Source: a virus. From it: a DNA stretch of 26,066 bases. The number at the start of each line of letters is the position of its first letter. Position 1 is the first letter of the stretch. This document shows, in pieces, positions 1-26,066 of this stretch. A program made the position numbers and the translations under genes. Below the pieces are notes generated by a model. It had not been told where the DNA came from, did not search any database, and was given only the letters and a program-made list of their open reading frames with translations. The stretch is taken from positions 1 through 26,066 of IMG/VR virus record IMGVR_UViG_3300031992_000417. One strand, given 5' to 3'.

Positions 1-127
1 AATAAATAATAAAAATAATAGTAATATAAATAATTTACGATTAGGAACATCATCCCCTAACGGGGCTGATATCCCTAATCCAGATAGTAATCCAAAGATA
101 GAAAAAGAAATTAGTAGAGATGAAGCC
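1..127. repeat. Terminal direct repeat, copy 1 (identical to 25940-26066); marks a closed or terminally redundant 25,939-bp genome
   Basis: Base-by-base comparison by eye shows 1-127 equals 25940-26066 with no mismatch. The reading frame of the ORF starting at 25434 continues through it. Confidence 0.93.
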
Positions 128-208
128 GAACTTATAGTTAACCCGCAATGGGTTTCCCCCACTCTACTTCTTACTTCTACTGGAAAATATTTTAGAGTTA
201 AAGATTAA
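2..208 (+). CDS. 3' end of the rep-like ORF that begins at 25434 (wrap-around continuation; 2-127 duplicate 25941-26066)
   Basis: Position 1 is the third base of the codon at 25938-25940. The frame stays open (...NNLRLGTSSPNGADIPNPDSNPKIEKEISRDEAELIVNPQWVSPTLLLTSTGKYFRVKD) to TAA at 206-208. The terS RBS follows immediately. Confidence 0.7.
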   Translation: MNNKNNSNINNLRLGTSSPNGADIPNPDSNPKIEKEISRDEAELIVNPQWVSPTLLLTSTGKYFRVKD

Positions 209-228
209 ATTGATAGGAGGGAAGTTTT

Positions 229-597
229 ATGGCGCTGACTACTAAACAAAAAGTATTTGCTGAAACATATATTGCTAATGGTTTTAACGCATTAAATGCG
301 TATAACGTAGCGTTTGGGGGCGGTCAAAAAAACAAACCGTCTTATCCTTACACATTATTAAAGAAACCTGAAATCCAGGAATATATAGAGCAAAGACGTA
401 AAGAAATGTATGAAAGTTTAAACATAGACAGTATGCGCGTAATGACAGAAATTGCCAAAATCGCATTTCAAGAAGAGAACAGCAATACCGTCTATGCTAA
501 ACTAAAAGCATTAGAGTTGTTAAGTAAAAATTTATCATTACAAACACAAAAGACCGAAAATAAAGATATTATTGAGGTCCAATTAATGGAGGATTAA
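229..597 (+). CDS. terS: Terminase small subunit (Terminase_2-like N-terminal HTH)
   Basis: AGGAGGG at 215-221 lies upstream of ATG 229. MALTTKQKVFAETYIANGFNALNAYNVAFGG fits the 'LT.KQ..F...Y...GN...A...AGY' small-terminase pattern. The gene sits upstream of terL. It has no in-frame TAG and ends in TAA. Confidence 0.78.
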   Translation: MALTTKQKVFAETYIANGFNALNAYNVAFGGGQKNKPSYPYTLLKKPEIQEYIEQRRKEMYESLNIDSMRVMTEIAKIAFQEENSNTVYAKLKALELLSKNLSLQTQKTENKDIIEVQLMED

Positions 598-598
598 T

Positions 599-838
599 AT
601 GATTGACTTTGAAGCAAAGAAAGCAGAAATTGAAGAGAAGTGGAAGCCTTGCGCCGAAGCGTGTAATGACTTATTAAAGGCATTAAATGAGTTCCGCAGT
701 ATTTCATTAGATGATTGCGACAAGAATAATACAGAAGAAGTCTAGAATTGTATGGCGCTTGGTCGCGACATAGATAACCGCACAATTTATATTTTGCGTT
801 CCCTATTGGTTCAACACGGGAATGTTTTGTTCTTATGA
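599..838 (+). CDS. Hypothetical protein (79 aa, one in-frame TAG at 743-745)
   Basis: ATG 599 starts two bases after the terS stop (TAATATG). The TGA at 836-838 overlaps the terL ATG (ATGA). It is open only if TAG is sense. No family recognised. Confidence 0.55.
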
Positions 839-2076
839 AAATCCAAGTTCATAAGAACATTTTTAATGCCGTTTATTTACCATATTTAGAGGATTTTAGC
901 ACACGCTTTATTGTTTTTTATGGCGGCGCTGGTTCGGGCAAGAGCCATTTTATCGCGCAACGATTAGTATATAAGGGGTTGAAGTCATAGCGCAAGATTT
1001 TAGTATTGCGTAAGGTCAATCGCACTACCAAAGCATCTACATTCTAGTTGCTTCTGGATACGGTAAGCCAGTTCGGCATTTACAATATGTGTAGTATAAA
1101 CCGCACTGATTTTACCATAACTTTGCCAAATGGCACCCAATTTTTATGTATGGGGTTAGACGACCCTGAAAAGATTAAATCAATCACCGGCTTAACTGAC
1201 GCTTGGTTGGAGGAAGCAACTGAATTTACTATGGACGATTTTAGCCAGGTAAATTTGCGTATTCGCGACCCCAAAGCGAAGGATTAGCAGGTGGTTTTGT
1301 CATTCAACCCAGTTTCAAAAGCCAATTGGTGCTATCTACAATTTTTTGCTGACAATCCAGAATTGGATGAGTTTAGGAAAAATGTTGTAATAGTTCATAC
1401 CAATTATTTGGATAATCCGCATTTACCAAAAGAATATGTTGAAACATTATTGTAGATGAAAAAGACTAATGAAGTCTACTATAAGATTTATGCTCTTGGT
1501 GAGTTCGGCAGTTTGGATAAGTTAGTATATAACAATTGGCAGGTAATGGATTTTGACCCATAGAAGATAAAAGGACCATTGCTTTGCGGACTTGACTTTG
1601 GATATACAAATGACCCCACGAGATTTATCGCGTCTATATTATGCGAAGACGAGGGGCGCATCTATGTATTCAAAGAATGGGGTGGCACCGGCTATCTTAA
1701 TGATTAGATTGCTGATGCGATAAAAGAAATGGGTTTTGCTAAAAGCACGATATGCGCTGATAGCGCTGAATAGAAAAGTATAGATGAGATAAAGCGTGCG
1801 GGCGTATCGCGCATTAAGCCGTGCGCGAAGGGCAAAGGCAGCATTTTATAGGGCATCCAAAAAATTCAATAGTTTGAGTTAGTTGTAGCCCCGTCTTGTA
1901 AAGAGACAATTGAAGAGTTAAGTAATTATTCGTGGAAAAAAGATAAAAACACGAATGAATACATAAATGAGCCAATAGATGCGTTCAATCACTGTTTAGA
2001 TGCTTTGCGGTATAGTATGTAGTGTGTTGAAGTGCGTGCCCCATTGGCTACAATAAAGAAAGATTTACTGTTTTAA
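835..2076 (+). CDS. terL: Terminase large subunit (PBSX/Terminase_3-type ATPase plus nuclease)
   Basis: Walker A FYGGAGSGKSHF, then LEEATEF, IYALGEFG, CGLDFGYTNDPT and DAFNHCLDALRYS motifs. There are 10 in-frame TAGs and no TAA/TGA until TAA 2074-2076. I checked every codion-free reading of the frame codon by codon. Confidence 0.92.
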
Positions 2077-2090
2077 GGAGGTCTATATCA

Positions 2091-3470
2091 TTGATTACAT
2101 TAAATAGTAAAGAGGAATTAACTATTCCGGTTATTAAGCGCATTGTAGAAAATCATTATGGAAAAGAACTACCACGATTATAGAAATTAGAAAGATATTA
2201 CAAGAATGATAATGATATTCATCGTCGTATAATGAGTGATAATACAAAACCAAATAACAAGACTGCCAACCCGTATGCCAGTTATATTACTGACACATTG
2301 GTTGGTTATTTTATGGGCGAACCAGTTAGTTATAATGCGGAAGATAAGAACTTATTACAAGATTTAAATATGATATTTGAATACAACGATGAAGCAGATG
2401 AGAATACTGAATTAGCAAAAGACGCCAGCATTTATGGTGTAGCATTTGAAGAGTTGTATTTCAGTGAAGACGACAAGATGATTAGGTTCAAGCGTTTAGA
2501 CCCAAAGGAAATTATTCCTATTTATGATAAGACAATTGAATAGAATTTAATCGCAGTAATTAGATATTATGAAGACTTTGATTATGTTGAGGAAAAGAAA
2601 AGTTTCGTTATTGAGATTATTGATGATGTTGAAGTAAATAGATACCGCACAGGTGAATTGTTTAATTCTTTTACTCTATTGGAAAATTATCCCCATTATT
2701 TTGGTATGGTGCCCGTCGCTATCTATGAGAATAACGAGGATTAGATGGGCGACTTTGAGAAGGTCATTGACCTAATTGATGCGTATGACAAGATGGAGAG
2801 CGATAGCCTAAATGATTTTGAATATTTTGTCGATGCTTATCTGGCTCTTTACGGATTTACCGCGGATAAAGATGACATAAAGCAAATGAAGGAAAATCGT
2901 GTGCTTTTGATGGATGAAGGCACAAGTGCTGAATGGCTTATCAAGAGTGAGAATGACGCAACGACCGAAAATATGAAGAACCGTTTAGACACTGATATTC
3001 ATAAATTCGCTAAATGCCCGAACCTCGCTGATAAAGAGTTCGCAAGCAATGCGTCTGGTGTTGCTATTAAGTTTAAGTTATTAGGCACTGAAAACCTCAC
3101 ATCTATTAAAGAGCGCAAATTCAAGAAAGGTTTACAATAGCGTTTAGAACTTATGAGTATGATAGGCGGATTATTAAATACTGGTTTTGATTGGCGTGGT
3201 ATTGAAATTATCTTTACTCGTAATATTCCAAGTAATGATATTGATATTGCCAATATGGTTAATACATTATCTGGCATTGTAAGTGACGAAACATTGCTCG
3301 CGCAAATTCCATTTGTAGAAGATGTTGAGGCAGAATTAGAACGCCTTAAAACGCAAAAAGAGGAAGATAAATTAAACAATCCATTCTTTGCTACTCCTGG
3401 TGTAAATTACGAAACAGCCGCGCAAGCAAAGGATAAAGAAGCGGAGGATGACAATAATGAATTGGACTGA
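2091..3470 (+). CDS. Portal protein (SPP1 gp6-like)
   Basis: TTG 2091 lies 9 nt after AAGGAGG (2075-2081). Motifs: ...LERYYKNDNDIHRR...KPNNKTANPYASYITDTLVGYFMGEPVSY..., ...GDFEKVIDLIDAYDKMESDSLNDFEYFVDAYL.... Four in-frame TAGs (2181, 2541, 2742, 3138). TGA stop at 3468. Confidence 0.9.
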
Positions 3471-3846
3471 AATTTTAATGAAAATTTTTGAGTTGTGTGT
3501 TATTCCTCTTCTTGGAATTTTAACTACTTATTTAGTCCAGTGGATTGCTGTAAAAAAAGAAGAAATTAAAGAACACACTCATAATGAAAAAGTAAATAAG
3601 TATTTAGATTTACTTGAAGGCACAATTTCAAATTGTGTCATCGCTACTAATTAGACTTATGTTGAAGCGTTAAAAAACTAGAATGCTTTTACTGCGGAAG
3701 CGCAAAAGCACGCTTTTGAGATGACTTATAAACAAGTTATGCTAATTCTTACTGATGAAGCAAAGTAGTATTTAACCGAAGCCGTTGGCGACCTTCAAGA
3801 ATACATTACCGCATAGATTGAGGCGCAGGTGAATTTAAATAAATGA
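3457..3846 (+). CDS. Membrane protein, LL-H-type holin-like (N-terminal TM helix plus helical tail)
   Basis: ATG 3457 lies 9 nt after GGAGG (3443-3447). ILMKIFELCVIPLLGILTTYLVQWIAV is a hydrophobic helix. The tail ...VIATN[TAG]TYVEALKN[TAG]NAFTAEAQKHAF...AQIEAQV resembles my recollection of LL-H holin family proteins. Four in-frame TAGs. The TGA at 3844 overlaps the next ATG. Confidence 0.55.
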
Positions 3847-4733
3847 ATATATTTAATGAATATTCACAACCAACTATTGATTTCATCTGGGCTCTACTGG
3901 CGGCGGCTTATGAAGATGAAGACAAGTTAGACAAGATATTAGAAGATATCGCTGATGATGTATTCAAAGAAGTTAGTAAAATCTTAAAGGATTTAGAAAA
4001 ATCCGGCAGAATTGATTTAAATAAAAAGATACGATTGGGCGACCATCCTGCGATATACAAGGCATTAAAAGATATTGAGAATAAACAATGGCATAGATTT
4101 ACTGAATGGTGTTGGATAGGAAATTAGGTAATTACAGAGAGTTTAATGCGAACTTATCGTGATACATTGTTATGGACTTACAATACATTTAGACCTAAAA
4201 TCCCAACAGCACCAACAGAGAAATCATTAGATGTTTAGATAAAAATTACTGATACATATATCCATAATCATTATCTTAAAATTCCTTGGTGCTAGGATGG
4301 AAAAATATATAGCGATAGACTATGGGGCAATGTTGCGAATTTCCAGAGTAAATTATCATATGTGCTAGAATAGGGTATCGCTCGTGGCAGAGGCGTTGAT
4401 TGGATGATGGATGAATGGCGCAAACTTACCAAGACTGCGGGTTATGAAGTGGCAAGGCTACTGAAAACAGAAACAATGGCTATGTGGAGTGAAGCAACAA
4501 AGGAAGCATATTTAGATATGGGAATTGAGTATGTAGAAATAATTAACCCAGAGCCTTGTGATGAAGTTTGTAGCGATTATGTTGGCGAGATTATCCCATT
4601 AGAAGAAGCAATCATTGGGGATGAATTGCCGCCTTATCATCCTAATTGTGTATGCGATTTCCACGCTTGGCGCGAAGATGTAAGCGCTGATGAATACGCG
4701 GCTTACAAAGAAGAATACGATGAAGAGGACTGA
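3843..4733 (+). CDS. Head morphogenesis protein (SPP1 gp7 / Mu F family)
   Basis: ATGA overlap with the upstream gene. ...IPWC[TAG]DGKIYSDRLWGN..., ...ARLLKTETMAMWSEA..., and C-terminal ...LPPYHPNCVCDF (the PP.HPNC.C signature). Four in-frame TAGs (4125, 4236, 4293, 4371). TGA stop. Confidence 0.85.
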
Positions 4734-4876: not shown

Positions 4877-5461
4877 ATGGCAGAAGAATTAAATAAGGGT
4901 TCAGTTGTTGAAACATCAACTGCGGAGAACGCAGGGGATAACGCACCGAAAACTTATACGGAAGAAGAAGTCCAGGCTCTCTTACAACAAGAGGGAGACC
5001 GCCGAGTTTCAAGTGCGTAGAAAAAGTGGCAGAAAGATTTGGAGAACAAGATGGCGGAAGCGGAGAAGTTAAAGAATATGGACGAAAGCCAACGCAAAGA
5101 ATACGAATACGAACAGAAACTTCGCGAACTGGAAGACCGCGAGCGTGATTTTGCTATTACTCAAAACAAGTTAGAAGCAACCAAAGTGCTCGCTAATCGT
5201 CATCTGCCAGTAGAATTTGTTGATTATATCGTAGCGGAAGATGCCGAAACAATGATGAATAATATTACTACTTTTGAAAAGATGTTTAATAGTGCCGTGG
5301 CTGATGCCGTGGCTATGAAGATTGCGTCTCCCGCACCTAAAACGGGTGCTGCTAAATAGACCGGGCTTACTCGTGAAGAGTTTAAGAAGTTGTCTATTTC
5401 ACAACAAGCGGAGATTTACCGCACTAATCCAGAATTATATAAGCAGTTATCCCGTGATTAA
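4877..5461 (+). CDS. Capsid scaffolding protein (DUF4355-like, coiled-coil, acidic)
   Basis: GAGGAGG at 4862-4868 precedes ATG 4877. ...TYTEEEVQALLQQEGDRRVSSA[TAG]KKWQKDLE...KLRELEDRERDFAITQNKLEATKVLANRHLPVEFVDYIVAEDAE... fits scaffold proteins found upstream of HK97-fold capsids. Two in-frame TAGs (5018, 5357). TAA stop. Confidence 0.8.
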
Positions 5462-5493: not shown

Positions 5494-6435
5494 ATGAGTT
5501 ATACTGCTATGTCTCATACTGTTTATGAGAATTTTGTTTTAGAAAATAAACTTGAAGATTTACTTATTACTAATCTTGACCTTAACCAGTTCGCTACTCA
5601 CGACGATAGTCTTGTTGAAAATCCTGGTATGAAGAAGGTTATCCACACTTATACTTCTAGTGGTGATGTTGAAGACCTCGCTATGGGCCAAGGCAATACT
5701 GATGGTATTGTTGTTTCTTTCAGCGATGAAGAGTATGAAGTTGGAACCACACAAGGTCGTTTCTCTTACTACGACGAGCAAGAAATGACTGACCCAATGG
5801 TTGTTGATGCTGGTCTCGATGGTCTCGCAAAGAGAATGGCTAACGACCTCACTGAAAAGGTTGTTGCTGAATTTGATAAGGCTGATTTGATTGCTTCTGG
5901 CGTTAATTGGTCCTTTGATAGTTTTGTTGATGCTATCGCTCTTTATCCTTATGAAGATGAAGCAGGTTTATTCTGCTTAATCAATCCCGCACAAAAGGCT
6001 GATATCCGCAAGGCTCTCGCTGACGACCTTAAATATGTTGAGGATTTTGCTCGCACTGGTTATATTGGTTCTGTTTGCGGTGTCCCTATTTATGTAACCA
6101 AGGCTGTTGCTGATGGCACTGCTTTCATTGCTACCAAGGATGCTGTTACTATCTTCACCAAGAAAGGTGCTGAAACCGAGCAAGAGCGTGATGCTAATAC
6201 TCGTTTAAATACTGTTTATGCCCGTAAGGTTATGCTTGTTGCTATCACTGATAAAACTCGTGTTATCAAGATGACTGCCAAAAATTGGTCTTATACCGCT
6301 GTTGTAAGTCCTGATGTTGATGATATTGGCACTTATTTTGAGCGTTCTGGTTCCGCTGGTTCTTATGTCTATACCAAGACTACTGATACCGCATTAGACG
6401 CAAATAAGACCTATTACACAAGAGAATTAGCCTAA
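5494..6435 (+). CDS. Major capsid protein (HK97-fold family)
   Basis: A 313-aa uninterrupted ORF after AAGGAG, directly downstream of the scaffold and followed by the strongest terminator in the window. ...VYENFVLENKLEDLLITNLDLNQF...NPGMKKVIHTYTSSGDVEDLAMGQGN... resembles Firmicutes siphophage capsids. It has no TAG. Confidence 0.88.
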   Translation: MSYTAMSHTVYENFVLENKLEDLLITNLDLNQFATHDDSLVENPGMKKVIHTYTSSGDVEDLAMGQGNTDGIVVSFSDEEYEVGTTQGRFSYYDEQEMTDPMVVDAGLDGLAKRMANDLTEKVVAEFDKADLIASGVNWSFDSFVDAIALYPYEDEAGLFCLINPAQKADIRKALADDLKYVEDFARTGYIGSVCGVPIYVTKAVADGTAFIATKDAVTIFTKKGAETEQERDANTRLNTVYARKVMLVAITDKTRVIKMTAKNWSYTAVVSPDVDDIGTYFERSGSAGSYVYTKTTDTALDANKTYYTRELA

Positions 6436-6454
6436 TTTATAATTAAATATAGAG

Positions 6455-6510: not shown

Positions 6511-6804
6511 ATGTTAGATAGAATTAAATTATTATTAAATATCCTTGATGATGAATAGGACGAATTACTTTCTACTTTAATTGCTCTTTGTAAAGATGAA
6601 GCATATATTTATTGTAATTTACCAGCATATAATGCGGCATTAGATGGCGCAGTTATTCAAATGGTAATTGAACGCTACAATCGCATTGGCAGTGAAGGCG
6701 CTACTTCATAGTCTTCTTCTGGTGTTTCAATGAGTTATGATAGTTTTTATAGCGATAAAGTTAGATGGATGTTGAATAAACAAAGAAAGGTGAAGATGAT
6801 ATGA
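6511..6804 (+). CDS. Head-tail connector (gp6-like, Phage_connect_1 pattern)
   Basis: MLDRIKLLLNILDDE[TAG]DELLSTLIALCKDEAYIYCN...VIQMVIERYNRIGSEGATS[TAG]SSSGVSMSY... follows the 'lk..L.i..d..D.ll..li..a...i..Y.n' connector pattern. Two in-frame TAGs. The TGA overlaps the next ATG. Confidence 0.78.
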
Positions 6805-7121
6805 TTAAACGAGATTTAATTCAACGCATTCGTGTCATCCCAACTGATGACGCGCAAGGCGGTTCAACAATTACAATTGAACCTTATGAGTTTATTAAGG
6901 CGCACGTATCTATTACTGCTACTGGTGAATAGATTACACAATATGGTATTACTACATAGAAATTAATTAATGTAGTTACTGATATAAAATTAGATGAATA
7001 TATTCATACCCGCTATGTTTTTAATGGCGATAAATATAAACTTATGAGCCAAGTAAAACGCGGTCGTGAATGGTTCAGCGTGATGATGGAAGTTATTGAA
7101 GAGGAGGCTGAACCGGTATGA
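6801..7121 (+). CDS. Head closure / head-tail adaptor protein (SPP1 gp16-like by position and size)
   Basis: ATGA overlap at 6801-6804. 106 codons with two in-frame TAGs (6930, 6957). It lies between the connector and later head-tail joining genes. Its TGA overlaps the next ATG. Confidence 0.7.
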
Positions 7122-7450
7122 TGAAGTTTGATAAAGACACCAATGTTATCACAATGATTGCGAAAGATACTGGGGATTTTATCATTAATGTAGAGAATTA
7201 TAAATTGGATGAGGGCGACGAGGTTTATTTTACTGTTAATGACAAATTAGAGAAACCCACCGCACTTATCTCAAAGAAAGTCACTGTATTTAATGAAGAT
7301 AACACCGCAATTATCCGCTTAACTTCCACGGATACTAATTTACAACCTGGGACTTATTACTATGATATCCAAATCAATACTGCGGATGGGCGTGTTGATA
7401 CTGTTTTAGGTCCCGCTAAATTTAAAATTTTAGGAGGCGTGAAATTCTAA
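7118..7450 (+). CDS. Small Ig-like beta-sandwich protein (BppU_N-like pattern)
   Basis: An uninterrupted 110-aa ORF. ...[24 protein letters not shown]...[29 protein letters not shown]... resembles the N-terminal Ig-like domain of baseplate or fibre anchor proteins. TAATG overlap with the fibre gene. Confidence 0.7.
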
Positions 7451-9576
7451 TGAGTGAAGAAAAAAAAGTATTAGATACTGAAATTGTTGTATCTATGTCT
7501 AACGCCACTTATAAAGGTGAAGTAGGACCACAAGGACCCAAGGGAGAACCAGGAGATAGCGCTTATGACATTGCTGTTAAGAACGGGTTTGAAGGCACAG
7601 AAGCAGAATGGCTTGCCTCTTTACATATTGATGGAGATTGGGAAGGACAAATCGGTTCTGCTGGTAAAAGCGCTTATGAAATCGCAGTTGATAATGGATT
7701 TGTAGGCACTGAAATAGAATGGTTAGCGAGCCTTAAAGGTATTAAGGGTGATACCGGCGCAACCGGACCGAAAGGCGATAAAGGCGACACCGGGGAAACT
7801 GGGCCACAAGGACCAAAAGGCGATAAAGGTGATACTGGCGCAACTGGACCGAAGGGTGATACTGGACCTGCGGGGCAAAATGGCGCTACACCTGTAAAAG
7901 GTGTTGATTATTTCACCGCACAAGATATTAATGATTTTATTGCGTAGGTCCCACAACCAGATTTAACTAAATATAATAAAGATATTTTTCTTAATAATGA
8001 TGAAACATTAACAGATGAAATTTATAACATACTTTATACTTGGAATACCGCGCAAACTGATTTCCGTTTAGGTTATATCCCAGGGTATAATTTATATTTC
8101 GAGAACCGTTATGTATTTGCGGTAAAACGAAGTCAATCTTATGGCTTACCAGAATTATTTTATTGGGATTATGATACTTCAACTTCTTGTTATTATATGA
8201 TAGGGACATTCCCGTAGTATTCTTCTACTAAAGGGTTTTATTATCACTATATAGCCCCATCAACTTCGGCATTTAAATAGGCTATTTCTGCTAATGTAAT
8301 TCGTTTAAAAGACGAAGATAAATTGGCTTCAACCAATTTCTTGCCACAACAATTTGCTTATATTAAAGAAAATTATGCGACCAAAGCCTATGTAGAAGAG
8401 ATTGTGCGCGGTATTGAAACCGGTGCTTTAAAGCGTTCTGTCGTTTAGACTTTGCCAACAGAGGATATAGACGAAGATACTATCTATATGGTGCCAAAAA
8501 CAGGTAGCACCGGTGATGTTTATAATGAGTATTTGTATGTAAATAATACTTGGGAATTAATTGGTAGCACAGAAGTTGATTTAACTAATTATGCTACAAA
8601 GAGTTATGTTGATGGCGCAGTATTTAGTGGGGATTATAATGACTTAACGAATAAACCAACTATTCCATCTGCTTATACCTTACCCACCGCTACTACTTCC
8701 TCTCTTGGTGGTGTTAAGGTTGATGGCGAGACCATTACTATTGAGGATGGTGTGATTAGTGCGGCTAGCGGTGGTGGTGCCACTTATACTGCCGGTAATG
8801 GTATTAACATTGATGAAAATAATGTTATTAGTAATAATAATTCAACAATAAATTTATTAAACGCAGAAATGACGGCAATAAATACTACCAGTATTCACAC
8901 CAAAGACGAACTTATTGAATTATTAAAACAAGAAAAAATAATATATGTAAATGATGTTACTTGGTATGGCACTCAAATTTCAAGCACAGAATTAGGATTA
9001 CGGAATAATAGAATTAAATATGAAGATTCTACAAGTATGAGCGGACTAGTTAGCACATCCATTACGAGCACGATAACTTTATATTCCGAGCAATATTATT
9101 AGTTAGTGCTAAATAAAAAAGCGACTTTATCATCTAATGATAATAGCGCGCAATGTAGAACTTGGTCGTCTCCAATGGTATCAACACAATTACCACTTTG
9201 TGTTATTGGCTATAATACATATAATGGAAAATATGTTGGGAAAAATATTTAGGATTTAAATAATCGTGTTCCTGTGAATAATACGGCTGATGGCTCTTAT
9301 AAACTTACATCAACTGTTACTTCTGGTTCCGCTACTTATGCTTGGGTTGAAGATAGTTCCGGTTCAAGTTTTAGTGGCGATTATAATGATTTAACTAATA
9401 AACCAACTTTATTTAGTGGAAATTATAATGACTTAACTAATAAACCTACAATCCCAACTGGGGAAACTTTGCCAACGGCACCAGCGGGGGATGGAACTTA
9501 TTTATTGAAAGTTTCTGTTTCTTCTGGAACTCCAACTTATTCTTGGGAAAGCGTTGTAATAGGAGGTAGTTATTGA
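7450..9576 (+). CDS. Collagen-like fibre protein (708 aa)
   Basis: Track ORFs 7450-7947, 8452-9102 and 9274-9576 share one frame, and the gaps between them are open except for TAG (6 in total). It has Gly-X-Y tracts, a duplicated SAY(D/E)IAV.NGF.GTE.EWLASL motif, [33 protein letters not shown] and three SG(D/N)YNDLTNKPT motifs. All of these are typical phage fibre motifs. TGA stop. Confidence 0.85.
7738..7884 (+). repeat. Collagen-like Gly-X-Y tract (17 consecutive triplets; a shorter 5-triplet tract lies at 7516-7560)
   Basis: [49 protein letters not shown] read directly. The underlying DNA is an imperfect tandem repeat. Confidence 0.92.
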
Positions 9577-9577: not shown

Positions 9578-10486
9578 ATGAGTTATGCTTTAATTAATAC
9601 TAATGATTTAACTACTCTTGGTAATGCTATTCGTGCGAAAACTGGTGATAGTAATAATTTAAGTATTAGCGAAATGGCTACTGCTGTCAATGGAATTACA
9701 ACTGGTAGTGGTGGTTCTAATTCTCCGCCTAATCGTGGTATGACATTCGAACAAACTAGCGATGGTGAGGGAAACCCAGTTATAAATATAGATTTATATG
9801 GAGCATATCAATATCATTTAAGTTATTCATCAATCTCGGCTGTAAAACCAGTGGTTCTTTTAACAAATATTTGTAGTCTAATTGGAAGACAATATAAGGA
9901 AATTGGTTGGTATACAACAAACTACATTAATATTACTTTACACGATAATAGTATAGATACCATTCCAGCATATTTTTTAAAACACTAGTATACGCCAAGT
10001 ACTGATAATATTATTCATCTTAGTTTAGCAGATAATACGCAAATAAAAACGTTAGAAGAAAATTGTTTGGAGTATTGCGGTCAAATATAGTTACCAACTA
10101 ATTTTTTTGATAGTATAGAGGCAATAGACTCTTATGCTTTGAATTATGCTAATTTTTAGTCTTATAATAATGGTATATTGGAATTGCCTACTAGTTTGAC
10201 GCGTATTAATAGTTCGGCTTTTAATGGTATTAGGGGAATTACAACTTTGATTATCCATAGAGATAATTTGGCGTCGATTGGCTAGTATGCTTTTCGATAT
10301 AGTAAACTAACAACCGTATATTTTATTGGTAATCGCGAGCAAGGTATAACGATAAATAGTCAAGCCTTTTCGAATACATCTGACCTTACTGATATTTATG
10401 TGCCTTGGAGCGAAGGCGATGTTGCTAATGCCCCTTGGGGTGCTACTAATGCGACTATCCATTATAATTGGACGCCGAGTGAATAA
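9578..10486 (+). CDS. Leucine-rich-repeat (BspA-type) fibre or receptor-binding protein
   Basis: The ATG lies 1 nt after the fibre TGA. N-terminus MSYALINTNDLTTLGNAIRAKTG..., then LRR units (...IDSYALNYANF..LELPTSLTRINSSAFNG...LASIG[TAG]YAFRYSKLTTVYF...INSQAFSNTSDLTDIYVPW...APWGATNATIHY). Four in-frame TAGs. TAA stop. Confidence 0.8.
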
Positions 10487-11200: not shown

Positions 11201-11383
11201 ATGGCATTTTTAAATAATAAAATGACCGCCTATACTGCCCCAGATGGGTTGGTTTATGATTATGCGGTAGCCCGTGAAGATGGCGAACACTTATATGTAA
11301 AGTATTTATACTTAACTAAATTTGATAATATCAATAATTATGTATTGGTGGATGACCCATATGATACAAAAGATAAAAACTGA
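11201..11383 (+). CDS. Hypothetical small protein (60 aa)
   Basis: AAGGAGG at 11184-11190 precedes ATG 11201. Uninterrupted, TGA stop. No family recognised. Confidence 0.55.
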   Translation: MAFLNNKMTAYTAPDGLVYDYAVAREDGEHLYVKYLYLTKFDNINNYVLVDDPYDTKDKN

Positions 11384-12415: not shown

Positions 12416-12428
12416 GGGGTTATATAAA

Positions 12429-15600: not shown

Positions 15601-18600
15601 TGGCAAGACCTATGACCCATTTGAAGAATGGGAAATAGAAGATAATCAGCCAATGTTCTATAAGCCAGGCGTAATTACTGATATAGGGAATATCAATTTT
15701 ACATTTAATGGATTAAATGGTTAGGTCTTTAATGTTCTTTATGAAGAAGACGAAAATAACATTGTCGTAAATTATTATCGTGATGATAATGATGGCGGAG
15801 ACCCCGTTTTATTACATAGCGATACAATAACATTATCACAGCGCGACTTTTATTAGGTTCCTACTTTTGGTGATATTGTTAGATTAAATAAATATAAACC
15901 AGCAGGTTATAAAACTGATTATGAGTTCCCTGAAATGAAGGTGTCATTAGCCAGAGTATTAGCGCACGCGCCATATACAATTACTTATACGCCTGAAACG
16001 GAACCATTAGAAGATTATACAACAACTATCAAATATATTAAAAAAGTTTATGGCATTAGAACTTATGAAACCATTGCGGAAGATATTTTACATTTTGATT
16101 AGACAGATTTTAGAGATGGCGAATATATTGATTTTTACATTGAAAAAAATAAATATAAACCAGAGCGTTTCTATGTAGATGGAGAATATTATCAATGGTA
16201 TGAGATGGATGAAAAATTAAATAGCCCAAGTGATTTAAAACCAATCTATACAGTGGTTTATGATTGCGCGCGCCAGTATATTGATGTAAATTACTATACT
16301 GATGAATGGGACGAAGAGAACTTAATTGCTTCTACCACTTGGTCTTATCAATTAGATGAGTTTGACCCAGAGTATCCATTCTATATTGTTGATTAGTTGC
16401 CAAATACTTATATCAATAAATATCGTCCAAGAAATTGTGATGGAGGACAATTACAAAATAGTGATGTAGCATATACTTTTTATACTCTCGCTGATTTAGA
16501 AGAAATCGCAATTGTATATGAAAGTATTAGCGAACCAAATGACCCAAATGAAGCATATTATGAAAAGAAAGTTTTATGTTTTGGTGATTTATGTAATAAA
16601 ATTTATCCAAGTATAAAAGATATCAATTTGGGTATATAGAGAGGTGTTTTACCTCATCCATTACAAGTGCCATATATTGATTTAGGCTATAAACCAAAAG
16701 AAATTGGGCGTTTAAGAGTTGAATTAACTGGCACTGCTAAACCAATTGGTGTTATAGCCCCAACAAGCCCATATTCTAATTTAGATACGGGATTTTGCGG
16801 GTTATTTGGATATCGTGGAGCACCAAATGATTTCATCGCTATTGCGAATACAAGTTATAGTGAAACTAAATTACCAGATACAATAGCCAGCCCATATATA
16901 TCAGTGAATGAGGAATTTGGAATAGATACATTGAAACCTGTATGGTCCAAAGGTGAATTTTATATTCAACCTCGTGTTCCTAGCACAGAGGGGGCATTTT
17001 GGATTTGGGATTACAGCGGTCCTTCAAGTATCGATGGTTAGAAATATATTGATAATGTAATGACAAGAAATAGAATGCCGCCTAATGATGTTTATTATAT
17101 CAAACCAGGTATGGTAGCCAGTTTTAGAAGAGGGTTACCTTTTGATGTTGATAATGATTATAATACAATATCAGCATTTAAAGAAAATAAATTTACTAAA
17201 ACCTATACTTGGGAAGGCGTGCCTGATAAAGAAACAGATGGATATATGTAGGTTAATAGTGATAGATTACTGTCCCAAGGGCTACAATCATTTGATGAAA
17301 CAGAAAGATATGATAATTAGGACGGCACCTGGGTTGGAGATTATGCTATTGCTAACCCATTTACAGTAGTATTAGATGCTTATAATAATTATTGTAGTAT
17401 TTGGAATTATCACGATAGCAATTATCCATTTATATGGAAATTTGAAAATACTGATAATTCAATTTGGGAAGATATAGAGAGACCAAAAGGGTCTTTATCT
17501 TTATTTACTACAACAAATCCATATTCAGGAAAACCCAATATATTAGATGACTACTATTGGTCTTACCCTTCTATGACAGCATTATAGGGCGGTATGACTA
17601 TGAGGTTTTAGCAAACTGTTTTAGGTTTAAACCCATACGATGCTAATAGTTGGAAAACAAAAGCAAATGGTGAAGATGAAATAGGTTATGGTTATATTAA
17701 AACTACTGTTAGAACAAAAAAGAAAAATCCTGACACTGGCAAATGGGAGAAAGTTGAAACTGAAATATCAAGAAATGTTATGTGGGCTGACTGGGTATTC
17801 CCAACATTCCCTTGGTTAGCGGGGGCTGCTATTTATAGTTTAAAAATCTATGATAGAGATAAATTAGTGCGTGATTTAATCCCAGTAGGTAAGGGCGATA
17901 AGATATATGATTATATAATGCCAGAAAATGGTTTATTTGACCTTATTACTGAAATTTTCTTTGGAGATAGCAACCCAGGTAAAGCAACATAGCGTTTAAA
18001 TACGGTTAGTAGTGAAGAATTTACTTATACACCATTCTCATTATATGCTATTCCAGATTTTAATATTTATGGTAAAATTACTACAAATTATTATGATTAT
18101 GATAATTCATTTATTGAAAATAAATTTGTAGATGTCCCGATGTGGTTTTGCGGGCGTAATACAACCATTGAAGAAATACTTGAATGGAATGATTATAAAC
18201 CTGATGATTACCACTTGGATGGATGGATTGATGTTGATTAGGACTGGTCTTGGTTAGGCGATAAAATGAACCTCGCTCAAATTTATGAAATGGGTTCAAT
18301 TAATGTTTATTACCGTCTTCGCACATTTACTAAAACAGTTGTATATTATCGTGATAATGTCCGTATTGGCAGTAGAGATATAATGTATTCATTAGAAGAT
18401 ATCCAAAACGCTCATAATTTAGCAGATTTAGGTATCAATGTAGATTTATATTATAACTCACAATTTAAACACGGTCGTGTTGTTTATAACGAACAAATCA
18501 TCGCACAAGATGATATTGAAGCATTTATTAATGCTCCAAGTCCAATAGTGGTATATGATAAATTAACACAAGAAGAAGCACCTAATCTTTTATATGTTGA

Positions 18601-21600
18601 ATATTATAGAGGCGGGGCTTACGATGACGGACTTATTACATTAGATGAAAATGATAGTAATTATTTAGATTGTGATTTAACCGCAAGGGTTCTTAATCCA
18701 AATGGAGCAATTAAATATTATAATCATTATCATCAAGCGCTTTATGAAGATGAAGACTTTGGCGAATTTATCCCATATCAAGTCAAAGTTTTAGATAAAT
18801 ACGCGGGTTTACACGCTGGTCCTGCTCGTAAATATAAAACTCTCGCAATGATTATATAGCGCGATACTTATACAATTATTCAAGAGCGTAATGGCTGGGG
18901 TAGATTAAGAGAGTATCCTAATGCGTGGATTTTATTAAGCGCTACTGAACCTATTACTGGTCCTGGTTAGAACCCAGACTATGACAATGGTTATGGTAAG
19001 GCTACTACTGAAACCAACATTAATTTAAGGTCTTCACCAAGTTTAATGTATAATAACAATATTATTGGCGTTATTCCAACGGGCACAGAGGTTGATATTA
19101 TTGGTGAAATGACCCGCGTTAGTGGGAGAAACTGGTATCCAGTGCGTTATTTGACTTATCAAGGCTATGTTGTTGATGAATATATCAATATTACTAAATC
19201 ATATTTAGGAGAACAACTAGTTATTCCATTTGGTGAATATGTTGATATTACAAAAATGACAGTAGATAGATTATGGTGCTATGCCCCTGATTTTGAAAGT
19301 TGGATTAAAGCAGAAGATATTAGTTTTAATCAAGCAGGTAAATTATATAACGGATTAAAAATTGATGTTATTGATTTAGATGGAATTGATTTCAGTAATG
19401 TATCTTCATTAGAAGATATGGGTATTGATATTTAGAAGTATGTATTGCGTTTCCATAATGATAGTAATTATAGTTATAGTGGCGACTATACATACAACGC
19501 ATTTAGTCAATTACATAATATTGATGTTGTATATCCAGAAACAATTTACAACTATTCTTGTATTTATTACCAAGATAATAAAGCAGAACAAAATAGATTA
19601 GGCGCATCTGCGTTTAGTTGCTCCATCAGTGATTGGAACCCAGATTGGGATACATTCATTGCTACCTCTTGGCAAACAGAAGAAGTTTATGGAGAAGCCG
19701 TGGCTAAAAATGGCACACAAACAACTGGTAATATTAATATCCGTAAAGAAAAAGATGTTAATAGTGAATTAGTTGGGACTGTTCCAATAGGCGAAACAGT
19801 GTCTATCACCGGTGAAAGTTCTGTGGTTGGTAGTTATACTTGGTATCCTGTTCTTTATGGAGAATACGCTGGATATATCCGCACTGTTAATTTAACTGTG
19901 GTTAGCGAATATGGTGGGACTATGGAAATTAATCCTCAATTATATCGTGATACAGTATTAACATTAACCTGGGATTATTTCGGTTTTGAACGCAACTTAT
20001 ATCGTCCTACTGGTTATGGTGAAGGTATTTACTTATGGAACCCTCGTTCTTGGGATAAAGACAATATTAAATTTAGTTTTGAAGAATTAATTAAATGTGG
20101 CACTCAATATGTTGTATATCCAATCTTTAACCCAGACACTTATAAGATTTGGGTATAGGGTAATTATTTAGGAAAATATGTATAGAGAAGTATTAACGAC
20201 CCATATTATGGGACCACATACTATCATATGTATTTAAATAATCCAGGTATTAAAATAGATTTAAGCGATGAAACACACGAATATAATTTATATAATACCG
20301 ACCATTATAGTATTTATGGTGCTGGTGAATGGCGTAATGATTTAGGCTATGGCGGGCACGAATATTCCGGTAATTATTTCTATATTAATAGTGGTGAAAA
20401 CGCATATTATAACACACGATTAGGTCCTATTGTATTTTCTCTTTCAAGCAATTATCGCTTTAATGGTATAAGTATGCCATATAAAACAATGTCTCCATCA
20501 AACGGGAATGTGCCAGACGCAATCCAAAATACTAAAAATGGAGATGTGTTGATTGGCGATGTATCGAATTATCGTTATAGCCCAACTGATATAGTAGGTA
20601 TTGGTAATGACTATGAAGGAAGAGAAAGATAGTATTACATTACAGGCAAATTAAGCCAATTACAAGATAATACAAATCTTATTGGTTATCATTATGATGT
20701 GCCTGATAACTCCACTGATTATGATTTACGCAATCAATGGTGTCGTGGTATTATTTATGAAGTTATTAGTTATTATGACTTTATGATGATACATTATTAT
20801 GTGCCAGTGCCAAAAGGTTTATGGTATCGTTATAATGGAGAAACATTAAGAATGCCTGATAATGGATTATTTGATTTACTTACGGGTGAATTTAAACAAG
20901 GATTTAGGGCGAGCAAAGACAGCGATTTAGTTCCTACTGGTTTTAGTGGCACATTGGGTGATGGCAAAGAACTTATTTTCTTACGCAATCAAAATATTAG
21001 TGATAATGCTTATGACTTATTTAATGGTTGGGAATATGAAACAACCGATGTGTCTATTATTAAACGGACAACTGAAAATACTATTGGATATCAATAGCCT
21101 GATGAATATAGTATTTAGATGCGTAATTTAACCGCTGGGCTTATCTTACCAATTGCTAAACAAACTAATGATAGTTAGAATTAGGTTGTTGGTTCTTGGG
21201 ATAAATCTTGTGATGAATGGATAAAACGCGATAAGTTAGAAACTGTCAGTGGATACAATAGTATTGTCGCAGAAGAAGCAACTTATAGTTTAGTGCCTGG
21301 AACTCTTTCAAATTTCTATGTATATAATGACCCATTAGCAGTAAGTCATATTGGAGAATAGAGTGATTATTCTTATGGCAATGCCCCTGGGGTTATTAAA
21401 GTATATTATGTATGTCCTACTCCCGTTGACGGAATGCTATTTGACGGAGCACATTGGATACCCAGATACTATACAAGTTCTGCTACAACTCCATTAAATA
21501 AGAACTATGTAATTACCAAAGATACCAATTATTACAAATTCCCAATCGCAGACAATGAATACCGTATAAATAGTTATTTATATGGTGAGCGCATCACAGT

Positions 21601-21688
21601 ATTGTATGTATGCCAGAACAACACTAACTGGGGCTATACTGGTTAGGGTTGGATTGAAATTGATGGCAATACCAGCGAAGTATTATAA
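12617..21688 (+). CDS. Giant tail protein (3,023 codons): Dit N-terminal domain fused to long arrays of adhesin-like repeats, three 'LVRDxIPV' modules and SH3b-like modules
   Basis: GTG 12617 lies 9 nt after AGGAGG (12602-12607). Fifteen track ORFs (12617 through 21646) all sit in frame 2. I translated every gap and found only TAG (33 in total) and no TAA/TGA until 21686. The N-terminus MLINGVDISNLGIKLYDRVL...FRNIKLSFLF...AFYRISQLTAMLKQATIVFDD fits distal tail protein (Sipho_tail) N-domains. Then come many ~70-90-aa units with (I/V)x(V/I)xYY strands, for example TIEVKYYDEADNG at 13517 and NIVVNYYRDDNDGG at 15758 (MucBP-like pattern). Recurrent modules lie at 15251-15454, 17825-17980 and 20747-20905. 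SH3b-like modules lie at 18776-18955, 19004-19192, 19721-19894 and 21509-21670. Confidence 0.85.
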
Positions 21689-21708: not shown

Positions 21709-22056
21709 ATGAATGAAAATTATTACCCAATTACATTTGATGGGGACAGTTTCATTATTAACAATAATGGGACTGCCCCAGCCCCTTGTAAGATTACAAT
21801 TGTCCCATAGGTAGATTTTGTAAATCTTACAATTGAGGGTTTAAGTGAAAAACCAATTAGTGTTTCACAAGTAAGAGCAAATGATACATTAATTATTGAC
21901 GGAGAGGAACGCACAATTACTATTAATGATAATACAGCATTTGATAGATATAATGGTTGGGAGTTCCCAAAAGTTTAGCCAGGATAGAATACGGTAAAAA
22001 TATTAAACGGCACACATATATAGATTTCAATAGAATTTAATATGAGGTATTTATAA
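21709..22056 (+). CDS. Distal tail protein, C-terminal domain only (115 aa)
   Basis: GGGGGA lies 8 nt upstream of ATG 21709. ...FIINNNGTAPAPCKITIVP...LTIEG....TLIIDGEERTITINDNTAFDRYNGWEFPKV[TAG]PG[TAG]NTVKI... matches the C-terminal 'i.N.Gt...P.i.i......l.iD......v...g.n....f..L.pG.N.i' pattern of siphovirus Dit proteins. Four in-frame TAGs. TAA stop overlaps the Tal ATG. Confidence 0.8.
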
Positions 22057-23174
22057 TGTTTAAAATATATAATAGTAGTCGTCGTTTTTTAACCATATTA
22101 GACACAGGGTTAAAGAATGTTTATACCACTGATAGTTTAGACACTGGTTGGAGAAGTTTATGTTTTTAGGTGCCGTGTAAAACCGAATATCTCCAATACA
22201 TAGAAGAAGAAAATTATATAGAAACCGAAGATTATAACTATATCATAAAAGAAATAAAAAGTGAAGATAATATTTTTTTAACAGTCTATTGCCAACCTGA
22301 TATTGATGATTTTGAAAGTCAGGTTCATCCATATTTTGATGTTAATCAATTAGGGTTAAAACAAGCCTATGAGTATTGTTTAAATGATACTGGTTGGGAA
22401 TTATCTTATCATAGTTCTAATTATACGAGATTACAGAATGAATATTAGGGTAGTAATAAATATAAAATTGAAATGATACGCAAAATGGCAAGTGATTTTA
22501 ACCAAGAGATATGGTTTGATACAAAAAATAAAATATTATATATTTATGATTGGTTAGGCAAGGACTTCGGGGCCTTTTATTCTAATGAGTTAAAATTAAA
22601 ACTATTAAAATAGTTTTCAAATACTTATGATTATGGAACAGTGGTATATCCTATCCCAAATAAAAAAATGAGTGGTAATATTTGGACTATTAATGATGGA
22701 AAAGATTATATTGAAAATTATGATTATACCACAAAACGCATTGTAAAATTTTATAAAGATGATAATGCTAAATATGCGGAATAGTTATTACGAGGAGCAT
22801 AGCAATATTTAAATGAAATTAGTGTGCCAAAAACTACTTATGAAATTGCTTTAACAGATATTGGCTCATCTGTTGCTCTTGGAGATAATATTGTTATTGT
22901 TGATAAAATTAAAAATATTAAAATTAAACAAAGAGTGGTAGAAATTATACGGTATCCATTAGAACCAGAAAAAAGCAAATTAATCATATCTAATTTACCA
23001 AGTAATTTTTATAAAATGTTTATAGCAGGTAACAGACAATTAGAAAAAGATATGACATTTGTGAAAGAAACAATAGAAACTAATGGAGATTTAATTAATT
23101 TGAATGATACGCATATTAACGACATTATAGATAAGTTAGACAAGGCTAATATTATTACTATTAATTTTGATTAA
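22056..23174 (+). CDS. Tail-associated protein Tal (Prophage_tail / TIGR01665 N-terminal domain, gp27-like); no obvious C-terminal enzymatic extension
   Basis: TAATG overlap with the upstream gene. ...SLCF[TAG]VPCKTEYLQYIEEENYIETEDYNYIIKEIKSEDN...LKQAYEYCLNDTGWEL..., ...AE[TAG]LLRGA[TAG]QYLNEISVPKTTYEIALTDIG... Five in-frame TAGs join track ORFs 22170-22448 and 22824-23174. TAA stop. Confidence 0.85.
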
Positions 23175-24176: not shown

Positions 24177-24199
24177 TACCCATTTTTAGGAGGTCTAGA

Positions 24200-24398: not shown

Positions 24399-24992
24399 AT
24401 GGAAGACAAATATGGCACACCCGCCATTAATTTGCCAGAAGAAGACGAAGAAGAAATTTGGATGCCGGCACCAGGCTATGAGGACCGCTATGAAATTTCA
24501 AGTTTTGGCAATTTAAAAAATAAAAAAACAGGATTATTACGAAAATTAGATAAAGACCATTTCGGGTATCCAGTCGTATGTTTAAGAAAATACGACCCTA
24601 TTATAAAGAAGTATAGAACTCATTCTGTTTATATCCATAGATTAGTATGTGAAGCGTTTAATGGACCACCTACTGCTGAAAATAATATCTGCGACCATAT
24701 AGACCGATGTATCGTGAATAATTATTATCTCAATCTTCGTTGGACCGACCACAGAGGAAATAAAATGAATAGTAAAACTTCTTCTGCTCGGCGCCCACAT
24801 ATTAAAATTAAAACTACTCCTATTGTTCTATTGGATATAAATGGGAATTTTATAGAACGATTTAATAGTATATTAGAAGCCCACGAAAAAACTGGTATTA
24901 GTATATAGTAGATATAGCATAATCTACGAGGGGCACGGGAACCTTTTAAAATCGGGTATTTTAAGACCGAAGCGGATTATTTTGACAAATAA
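24399..24992 (+). CDS. Free-standing HNH homing-type endonuclease (NUMOD4-like N-terminus, HNH_3 core, C-terminal IENR1/NUMOD1-like DNA-binding helix)
   Basis: AAGGAGG lies upstream of ATG 24399. YEISSFGNLKN (NUMOD4-like), HRLVCEAFNGPP...CDHIDRCIVNNYYLNLRWTDHRGN (HNH). With TAG as sense the ORF runs through TAG TAG ATA TAG (24906-24917) to ...FNSILEAHEKTGISI[TAG][TAG]I[TAG]HNLRGAREPFKIGYFKTEADYFDK and TAA at 24990. Confidence 0.82.
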
Positions 24993-25010
24993 AAAAAAAT
25001 TTGATATAAT
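24982..25010 (+). promoter_or_regulatory. Near-perfect sigma70 promoter: TTGACA, 17 nt, TGATATAAT (extended -10)
   Basis: TTGACA at 24982-24987, a 17-nt spacer, TG at 25002-25003, and TATAAT at 25005-25010. It overlaps the last codons and stop of the HNH gene. Confidence 0.75.
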
Positions 25011-25097
25011 ATAATTACAAAATAAATAAGTTCTTTTTTAAAAAATCACTAAACAGGATAAGGGCTTATATTATTTTCCTTCTTAATTTCATTGATG

Positions 25098-25197
25098 GTA
25101 GAGCCGTATTATAATATTCAGGGTTTTTTTCCTGGGATTTTTAGCCATTTTCCCACAACTCCTTTCACCTCCCCTGAATATTCTAATGCGGCTCTAT
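25098..25197 (+). other. Long inverted repeat / hairpin (26-bp stem, 48-nt loop with a nested stem) in the leader downstream of the consensus promoter
   Basis: GTAGAGCCGTATTATAATATTCAGGG (25098-25123) pairs with CCCTGAATATTCTAATGCGGCTCTAT (25172-25197). There are 23 Watson-Crick pairs, one G-U and two mismatches. The loop contains TGGGA...TCCCA. Confidence 0.8.
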
Positions 25198-25235
25198 TAC
25201 TAAAAACAAATTTATTCCAAAAGGAGATACAAATA

Positions 25236-25415
25236 ATGACAAAGACCAAAAAGATTTATTCAAGTAAAATAGCCGGAGCCTTATATAGATAGGGTTTTAA
25301 AATTATCGGCACTGAACCCAATCCGCACAAACCGTGGTTGGATGTGTTTATTTTTAATGATACAGATGCTTTGAATGAGGCGTTTGATAAGATATTAACC
25401 AATAGAAAATCATAA
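25236..25415 (+). CDS. Small DUF5659-like protein (59 aa, one in-frame TAG)
   Basis: AAGGAG at 25221-25226 precedes ATG 25236. MTKTKKIYSSKIAGALYR[TAG]GFKIIGTEPNPHKPWLDVFIFNDTDALNEAFDKIL fits the 'a..L...Gf.........vf.F.d' pattern. TAA TAA stop at 25413. Confidence 0.65.
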
Positions 25416-25433
25416 TAAGAAGGAGTATGCCAA

Positions 25434-26066
25434 ATGCCAAATTATAAACAAGCACCTAAATTATATCATAACAAAACTAATTTTAATAGTGATAACTATT
25501 ATAATCTACCGCAGGAATTAATGGATTGTATTTTTACTCAAATTGATGGTAAAAGTGGTAATCAAATTAAATTAATTATCGTATTACTCGGCACATTAGG
25601 TAATGGAACATTCGGTGTGAGCGAAAAATGGATATGCGAGCGCACAGGAATGGTCCAATAGACATATAGTAAAGCGCGCCAAGCGTTGATAGAACGCGGT
25701 TGGGTTTATGTTGAAGATGGTAAATTATATGTATTGCCTTCTATCATTCGTTATGGGTTTCATTATCCAGAAGGAATTAGTGATGAAGAGAGGGCGGCTA
25801 TTAGGGAAAAAACAATTTCAAAATGTGTCAATGACATCAAAAAGCAATATGGGTTGGAAGTGAAGACACAATTTGAAAATGTCCCATAGGCACAATTTGA
25901 AAATGTCCCATCGGGACAATGTGAAATTGTGTATAATATAATAAATAATAAAAATAATAGTAATATAAATAATTTACGATTAGGAACATCATCCCCTAAC
26001 GGGGCTGATATCCCTAATCCAGATAGTAATCCAAAGATAGAAAAAGAAATTAGTAGAGATGAAGCC
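25434..26066 (+). CDS. Putative replication initiator / winged-HTH DNA-binding protein (5' part; continues to 208 via the terminal overlap; 237 aa in total)
   Basis: AAGGAG lies upstream of ATG 25434. ...GNQIKLIIVLLGTLGNGTFGVSEKWICERTGMV[TAG]QTYSKARQALIERGWVYVEDGKLYV... is wHTH-like, as in phage replisome-organizer/DnaD-like initiators. Two in-frame TAGs (25659, 25887). Iteron-like repeats lie inside its 3' part. Confidence 0.6.
25867..25931 (+). repeat. Iteron-like direct repeats (24-nt period, 2 exact copies plus 1 degenerate) followed by an AT-rich tract; candidate origin
   Basis: CACAATTTGAAAATGTCCCAT occurs at 25867-25887 and again at 25891-25911. A degenerate third unit, GACAATGTGAAATTGTG, lies at 25915-25931. 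After that comes about 45 nt of almost pure A/T (25931-25975). Confidence 0.6.

Follow-up and report, generated by a model that had tools for sequence, protein, structure and literature searches.

The IMG/VR virus record IMGVR_UViG_3300031992_000417, analyzed over the whole of its 26,066 nucleotides (nt; hereafter the window), is the complete circular genome of an uncultured tailed, siphovirus-like phage belonging to a lineage of herbivore gut and rumen metagenomes. Comparison of its coding sequence with that of related loci strongly supports a genome-wide reassignment of TAG from stop to sense, with the codon encoding glutamine (Gln), as in translation table 15. We consider it very likely that TAG is read as Gln in every part of the genome, that termination is left to TAA and TGA only, and that the decoder is provided from outside this genome.

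Bases 1-127 recur as an exact copy at 25940-26066. Because a terminal direct repeat of this kind (127 bp, the assembly overlap of a circular genome) is the usual mark of a circular assembly, the genome is both circular and complete, with a unique length of 25,939 bp. The GC content of the window is 33.5%, all genes lie on the + strand, and two relatives, L001 and L002, have the same synteny across the circular junction.

TAG as a sense codon across the genome

Translated with table 11, the + strand open reading frames (ORFs) of at least 100 amino acids (aa) total 4,668 aa, and none exceeds 318 aa. With TAG as sense, the total rises to 9,110 aa and the longest frame to 3,025 codons; treating TGA as sense instead gives only 5,126 aa, almost no gain. 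An initial annotation, made from the sequence alone, had described genes fragmented under the standard code by TAG and by no other stop, and had joined the pieces into 28 + strand ORFs covering about 96% of the genome. Both observations are borne out, the curated set of 28 + strand ORFs, in frames bounded by TAA and TGA only, covering 96.0% of the unique sequence. These ORFs hold 98 in-frame TAGs in 8,351 codons (1.17%), spread over 20 of the 28, where 99 in about 8,300 codons had been counted by hand. The single-gene counts reported for the large terminase (terL, 10), the fiber (6), and the giant ORF (33) were reproduced. That for the portal was not: three TAGs were found rather than four, the fourth lying upstream of the ATG at 2232, a start in agreement with the 410-412 aa portal proteins found in relatives.

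None of the 28 ORFs contains an internal TAA or TGA. The three frames of the + strand together carry 840 TAA and 676 TGA triplets, only the 28 terminal ones of which fall in coding frames, and 516 TAGs, of which 98 do. Eighteen ORFs end in TAA (one of them across the circular junction) and ten in TGA, as had been counted before; both triplets are read by release factor 2. The frame at 12617-21688 runs for 3,023 codons free of TAA and TGA, which had been judged beyond chance. It is indeed not explicable by chance, because in the other two + strand frames these triplets make up about 5-8% of the total. Protein family models likewise pass through the TAGs: Terminase_3 (3-201 of 201), Terminase_3C (1-153 of 155), and SPP1_portal (35-413 of 416) of Pfam align near full length across 11 TAG positions.

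The bases from -6 to +6 around the 98 TAGs broadly resemble the surroundings of CAA and CAG, with no TAG-specific context or shared motif, and because no special nucleotide context is present, a general reassignment rather than programmed read-through is indicated. In programmed read-through, such as that of Qβ A1 or the TMV-type signal CAA-UAG-CAA-UUA, UAG is likewise sense and often Gln, by way of a near-cognate or suppressor tRNA. Here, in contrast, there are 98 sites in 20 genes, which share no context and lie inside conserved domains, not at gene ends.

Glutamine at TAG positions and the coding states of the lineage

Twenty-three related loci (given L numbers here) were fetched, each codon of the window was aligned to its counterpart at the DNA level, and the same alignments were used to derive empirical substitution models, one per amino acid (20 in all). 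More than 100 terL relatives in the databases (78-94% identity) are all called at 413 aa, and their contigs do not yield those proteins under table 11. The "Q" of such database proteins was not used as evidence, because the gene caller had already assumed that TAG is Gln; the DNA was used instead.

In the TAG-free relatives L008-L010, Gln stands opposite the TAGs of the window in 58 of 112 cases (0.52; 39 CAA and 19 CAG), and the true Gln codons of the window are conserved to an equal degree (0.52) in the same alignments. The log-likelihood for these three loci is -227 with Gln and -338 with the runner-up, Lys, a gap of 111; over all loci, it is -1,628 with Gln and -2,169 with Lys, a gap of 541. 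Gln had been put forward as the probable residue, and this assignment now leads the second-best residue by over 100 log-likelihood units. If it is adopted, the Gln codons of the window comprise 98 TAG, 166 CAA, and 30 CAG, such that TAG supplies one third of them, and Gln content, with TAG counted in, is 3.5%.

Conserved TAG sites have CAA or CAG in every non-TAG relative. In all relatives down to about 67% terL identity, Q or TAG occupies positions 1045, 1285, 1849, 1870, 2020, 5357, 6709, 10788, and 10824, and the same is nearly invariant at 1771 (one exception) and 3138 (three). The TAGs of terL fall at aa 52, 71, 151, 207, 243, 291, 313, 339, 346, and 396; those at aa 71, 151, 313, 339, 346, and 396 are Q or TAG in relatives to 67% identity, the sole exception being Asn at aa 313 in L019. 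Position 313, in the motif ADSAE[TAG]K, is Pro in distant terminases and Gln within the lineage. Conserved motifs had been said to continue across TAGs, and at 1771, 10788, 10824, and 21976 the relatives do mostly have Q (at 10788 and 10824, both in the Neck1-like gene, nearly all have Q or TAG). The PG[TAG]N site at 21985 does not follow this pattern, being variable, with E, I, T, or V. A TAG that had been placed in an "NQTY"-type holin motif, that at 3652, is Q in relatives, and its gene matches the holin family PHROG 13712.

Two other accounts of the TAGs can be set against these data. That they are genuine stops in a decaying, pseudogenized element, or systematic C-to-T miscalls of CAG, would draw on the fact that TAG is one transition from CAG, but this explanation is effectively refuted. 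Genes are interrupted by TAG only, never by TAA or TGA, and the same and different TAG sites appear in dozens of independent assemblies, drawn from ENA, Logan, NCBI, and IMG/VR/JGI, from samples that include cattle and other herbivore material (judged from record names); this recurrence excludes a sequencing artifact. In terL, about 80-84% identity at the DNA level is accompanied by 92-94% at the protein level, the mark of strong purifying selection. The commonest partner codon of TAG in relatives is CAA, two changes away, and this fits synonymous drift, not error; TAG sites are not significantly derived preferentially from CAG. Some anaerobic Bacillota decode UAG as pyrrolysine (Pyl), and Pyl or another non-Gln amino acid could be imagined here too. 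Such a residue is extremely improbable, given that the substitution profile fits Gln, with the Lys model worse by the margins stated above, that no pyl genes occur among the Pfam matches of the window, and that the density of TAG is far above that of known Pyl users.

The lineage itself contains several coding states. Heavily TAG-recoded relatives (L001-L007, L011-L012, and L014-L018) stand beside relatives with essentially no in-frame TAG (L008-L010 and L022-L023) and TGA-recoded ones (L013, L019, and L020); L008-L010 and the three TGA-recoded loci have 67-81% terL identity to the window. In the TGA-recoded sister phages, 16 of 36 in-frame TGAs are opposite TGG of the window and the stops are TAA and TAG only; these phages are predicted to read TGA as Trp. 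In the TAG-free sisters, TAG is the stop at none of 36 homology-anchored ends and at 2 of 57 in the ORF call. This scarcity carries little weight as evidence, since TAG stops are likewise rare or absent in some unrelated, ordinary AT-rich prophages (L025, L026, and L030).

Use of TAG is uneven between genes. Among orthologues in L001, L007, L011, and L015-L018, the TAG share of Gln codons is 0.06 in the major capsid gene and 0.03 in the scaffold gene, compared with about 0.26 elsewhere; it is richest in the terminase, MuF, HNH, and neck protein genes (0.39-0.46). Taken together, the capsid, scaffold, and major tail protein genes have 10 TAG versus 149 CAA/CAG, and other genes have 368 versus 1,021 (Fisher p = 6e-10, a value inflated by relatedness). 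Because capsid and scaffold, which are the most abundantly made, avoid TAG, its decoding is probably slower or costlier than that of CAA and CAG. The pattern suggests that TAG is a second-rate, poorly translated Gln codon.

Source of the decoder

No tRNA was detected in the window by ARAGORN, whether in default mode, with introns, in mitochondrial mode, or at the 80% threshold, and an Rfam search at E ≤ 1 returned no tRNA and no ribozyme. Nor was any tRNA found in 22 + 31 loci of relatives (53 in all, a few of the 31 metagenome loci being the same contigs as IMG/VR loci). Relaxing ARAGORN to a 70% threshold with introns produced a sole tRNA candidate with a CUA anticodon, which was rejected as intron-bearing and located within the capsid gene. 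When all ORFs were scanned with Pfam and PHROGs (PHROGs only for the 708-aa fiber ORF), no release factor, aminoacyl-tRNA synthetase, or tRNA-modifying enzyme was revealed. TAG is present in every functional module (replication initiator, 2; terminase, 10; holin, 4; HNH, 3; and the head and tail genes), and since the initiator is included, the genome lacks a purely standard-code early block from which a new code might be installed.

Because no tRNA, release factor, or synthetase is encoded and TAG occurs in all modules, we infer that the decoder comes from outside the genome and that decoding probably takes place in trans. Most simply, UAG would be read by a tRNA-Gln(CUA) that is charged by the host's glutaminyl-tRNA synthetase and originates from the chromosome of the host, from a co-resident element, or from a phage infecting the same cell. 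Decoding would have to be efficient, as one ORF needs 33 consecutive read-throughs. The host is likely to be a member of the Bacillota, judging from terminase similarity: the nearest cultured phages by this protein (≤50% identity) infect Clostridium, Bacillus, and Enterococcus. A search of 185,579 species-representative genomes (GTDB) revealed no close relative and no integrated copy.

Several points weigh against the reading of TAG as Gln by means of an external decoder. The claim of the initial annotation that TAG is never a stop is partly circular, the ORFs having been defined with TAG as sense. Where C termini could be anchored by homology in close recoded relatives, the ends are TAA or TGA, with a TAG needed in 1 of 15 for L001. 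Alignment of homologues had been suggested as a way to tabulate the residues opposite TAG. Close relatives give Gln, whereas 138 terL representatives at 35-60% identity give no Gln signal; these distant homologues are uninformative because the ten TAG sites fall in variable columns. The nearest prophage terminases are only 53-55% identical (Sedimentibacter, Bacillota, and Oscillospiraceae metagenome-assembled genomes). Also, the source of the decoder is one that we infer entirely.

Two further explanations accept TAG as Gln and differ in where its decoder would reside. The phage may itself encode one that the tools have missed, either a non-canonical or split tRNA-like RNA or a small protein that inactivates release factor 1 (RF1) and lets a near-cognate tRNA-Gln read UAG. 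Near-cognate insertion of Gln at UAG without RF1 is established in RF1-deleted E. coli, and the genome does offer candidate locations. The TAG-free genes at 23337-24373, two of which have no recognizable function, lie behind early-type promoters and could be made in a standard-code cell, and a conserved structured RNA at 25097-25198 follows a perfect σ70 promoter. Novel RNAs or enzymes have been raised as a possibility by Borges et al. (bioRxiv 10.1101/2021.08.26.457843). However, the two functionally unassigned genes, g24 and g25, have counterparts in one relative only, at 34-46% identity, and are thus not lineage-wide; the sole CUA candidate of the relaxed ARAGORN search lies inside the capsid gene; and near-cognate read-through is unlikely to pass a ribosome through 33 TAGs. 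The possibility that the hairpin at 25097-25198 is a hidden suppressor was also rejected: it folds as a single long stem and not as a cloverleaf, and relatives do not conserve its CUA triplet. On balance, a decoder encoded by the phage appears unlikely.

Less likely still is that the host itself, an amber-suppressing strain or a lineage without RF1, reads TAG as Gln and that the phage merely mirrors the host code. The occurrence of TAG even in the replication initiator (two sites), with no code-switch apparatus, would be in keeping with this, as would the lack of tRNAs throughout the lineage in the loci examined. The TGA-recoded sisters are also without tRNAs, and the TAG-free sisters are nearly without TAG stops, the pattern expected if these phages track host environments. 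Phages of Mycoplasma and Spiroplasma that use code 4 are recoded with no suppressor tRNA of their own, and L013, L019, and L020 look alike; the code-4 Mycoplasma phages probably simply share the code of their host (Cook et al., PMC11210395). On this account, which we regard as rather improbable, an uncultured herbivore-gut Bacillota host would read TAG as Gln, the TGA = Trp sisters would follow hosts that use code 4, and the TAG-free sisters would suit either kind of host. Extension of the code-4 analogy to TAG is hypothetical only, and we know of no described bacterium in which TAG is Gln. The scarcity of TAG stops is shared by the ordinary AT-rich prophages mentioned above, which makes this evidence thin, and the avoidance of TAG in capsid and scaffold suggests competition or a limiting decoder. 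Furthermore, Borges et al. (bioRxiv 10.1101/2021.08.26.457843) found small TAG-recoded prophages integrated into genomes of Prevotella and Oscillospiraceae that use the standard code. Supply of the decoder from outside this genome remains our preferred reading.

Gene complement and relation to known recoded phages

All of the genes described below are on the + strand. The packaging and head genes begin with the small terminase subunit (229..597; Pfam Terminase_2, E = 3.4e-18; no TAG) and a 79-aa ORF (599..838; one TAG) that is 79-92% identical in close relatives. They are followed by terL (835..2076; Pfam Terminase_3 and Terminase_3C over their full length), the portal (2232..3470; Pfam SPP1_portal, E = 6e-107), a holin-like membrane protein (3448..3846; PHROG 13712, E = 7.6e-30; four TAGs), and a MuF-like head morphogenesis protein (3843..4733; Pfam Phage_Mu_F, E = 1.5e-6, slightly under the gathering score; four TAGs). 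The scaffolding protein (4877..5461; PHROG 172, E = 4.7e-38) has two TAGs and the major capsid protein (5494..6435; PHROG 544, E = 1e-21) none. A block at 6511..7450 encodes a head-tail adaptor (PHROG 132, E = 4.8e-22) and two small head/neck ORFs, with two TAGs in 6511-6804, two in 6801-7121, and none in 7118-7450.

The tail genes open with a collagen-repeat fiber (7450..9576) that matches many PHROG tail-fiber families (best E = 1.2e-26). Within it, 37 nt in a repeated protein motif (9414-9450) are 100% identical to fiber/structural genes of the PA5oct group of Pseudomonas jumbo phages, the sole match returned when the whole genome was compared with cultured phages by megablast. A BspA-type leucine-rich-repeat protein follows (9578..10486; Pfam LRR_5, E = 5e-13; four TAGs), and then a tail completion/Neck1-like protein (10551..11183; four TAGs), for which the earlier label "gp10-like" is weakly supported by its match to PHROG 5 (tail completion/Neck1, E = 1.5e-7). 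The block at 11201..12623, in which PHROG 176 and PHROG 1407 are matched, comprises a small ORF without assigned function (11201-11383; no TAG), the tail terminator (11340-11774; no TAG), the major tail protein (11665-12138; one TAG), and two small ORFs (12110-12415, two TAGs; 12429-12623, five TAGs).

The giant ORF (12617..21688) occupies 35% of the genome and is placed where the tape-measure gene would be expected. It has a GTG start with GAAGGAGG 9 nt upstream, and its only Pfam match is SH3_3, found twice (about aa 2130-2430); homologous ORFs of about 3,000 aa are present in relatives. No tape-measure protein and no endolysin were recognized anywhere in the genome. Downstream are the C-terminal domain of the distal tail protein Dit (21709..22056; Pfam SPP1_Dit, E = 7e-11; four TAGs) and Tal, a baseplate protein of the tail-associated lysin type (22056..23174; Pfam Prophage_tail, E = 7e-28, and Prophage_tailD1; five TAGs). 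When Tal was used as a second anchor in IMG/VR, only one distant locus was found.

The remainder of the genome holds three small TAG-free genes at 23337-23510, 23576-24076, and 24200-24373, the last of which is helix-turn-helix-like. An AT-rich, promoter-like repeat is present in three copies (23268-23304, 23509-23545, and 24993-25029); upstream of each of the TAG-free genes at 23337 and 23576 stands one of the first two copies, along with the same ribosome-binding region (TTGAAAGGAAATAATAAAAAATG), and the third overlaps the perfect σ70 promoter. An HNH homing endonuclease is encoded at 24399..24992 (Pfam NUMOD4, HNH_3, and NUMOD1). Because all three of its Gln-type codons are TAG, this mobile gene has either been in a recoded background for long enough to adapt or been acquired from another recoded phage.

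The promoter, of the extended type (24982-25010; TTGACA, 17 nt, TG-n-TATAAT), is conserved in relatives. Downstream of it, the hairpin RNA of about 100 nt at 25097-25198 has a 27-bp stem (z = -5.9) and compensatory changes in L001, L002, and L007, the count of which is only indicative, as the segments of relatives are partly incomplete. Nothing in Rfam matches it; its possible roles are those of a leader, a small RNA, or an origin structure. The presence of promoter and hairpin implies that the next gene begins at ATG 25237 and not at 25095; so revised, it spans 25237..25415, with an AAGGAG ribosome-binding site, a weak DUF5659 match, and one TAG. The DnaD-like replication initiator (25434..26066 + 128..208; PHROG 186, E = 5e-9; 237 aa) runs over the circular junction to a TAA at 206-208, as read by wrap-around translation. 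Inside this gene, at 25808-25911, are three iteron-like direct repeats of 24 nt (ACACAATTTGAAAATGTCCCAT), two of which stand in tandem; they are likely to be the origin. The in-frame TAG at 25887 falls precisely where the tandem copies meet.

The phenomenon is already known, and all of its features match published code-15 gut phages. Like the crAss-like, Lak, Garnet, Amethyst, and Topaz phages, the present one has low GC, in-frame TAG through structural and lysis genes, TAA and TGA stops, Gln opposite TAG in standard-code relatives, and sister genomes in the same clade with other codes (11 or 4). In crAss-like phages, TAG = Gln has been proven by metaproteomics (Peters et al., PMC9523058). Borges et al. 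(bioRxiv 10.1101/2021.08.26.457843) described small TAG-recoded clades (Topaz, 22 ± 3 kb; Garnet and Amethyst, about 34 kb), clades that mix codes 11, 15, and 4, and a route in which low GC leads, by way of lost TAG stops, to recoding. In small genome size this phage resembles Topaz, Garnet, and Amethyst, and the placement of all genes on one strand and a probable Bacillota host are further points of likeness to recoded gut phages. Topaz, at 22 ± 3 kb with one gene direction and a Firmicutes host, compares with 25.9 kb, all genes on the + strand, and an affiliation with Bacillota suggested by terL neighbors at 50-55% identity or less.

There are also differences. Garnet and Topaz prophages have a TAG-free integrase, whereas Pfam and PHROG scans found no integrase among the 28 ORFs here; no contig of a relative exceeds about 28 kb, and none has host flanks. 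Unlike many code-15 phages, this one encodes neither a suppressor tRNA nor a release factor. Unlike the model proposed for large recoded phages, it has TAG in its replication initiator and no standard-code early module. Cultured siphoviruses of Clostridium, Bacillus, and Enterococcus (vB_CpeS_BG3P, BC-7, and others) have the nearest cultured large terminases, an SPP1-type portal, and Dit/Tal, but they differ in terminase (≤50% identity), genome size (about 48-72 kb), and their use of the standard code.

A table 11 annotation of this genome is wrong, in that its genes are shredded and the 3,023-codon ORF is invisible; table 15 is needed. The wider significance lies in the decoder. A suppressor tRNA is found in only 40% of TAG-recoded genomes (Borges et al., bioRxiv 10.1101/2021.08.26.457843), and Sup-CTA tRNAs in 52% of code-15 phages (Cook et al., PMC11210395), such that published surveys leave open how TAG is decoded in roughly half of the code-15 phages, those with no detectable suppressor tRNA. 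The present phage is a compact, complete representative of this group, with 28 genes in 25.9 kb and close relatives in three coding states. A genome so small has few hiding places for an unrecognized decoding factor and would be a convenient test case if its host were found. Should that host, against our expectation, prove to read TAG as Gln itself, the phage family would point to a bacterium in which the amber codon is reassigned, the first of its kind. In either case, the point of interest is a complete 28-gene genome with no visible means to decode its own most characteristic codon.

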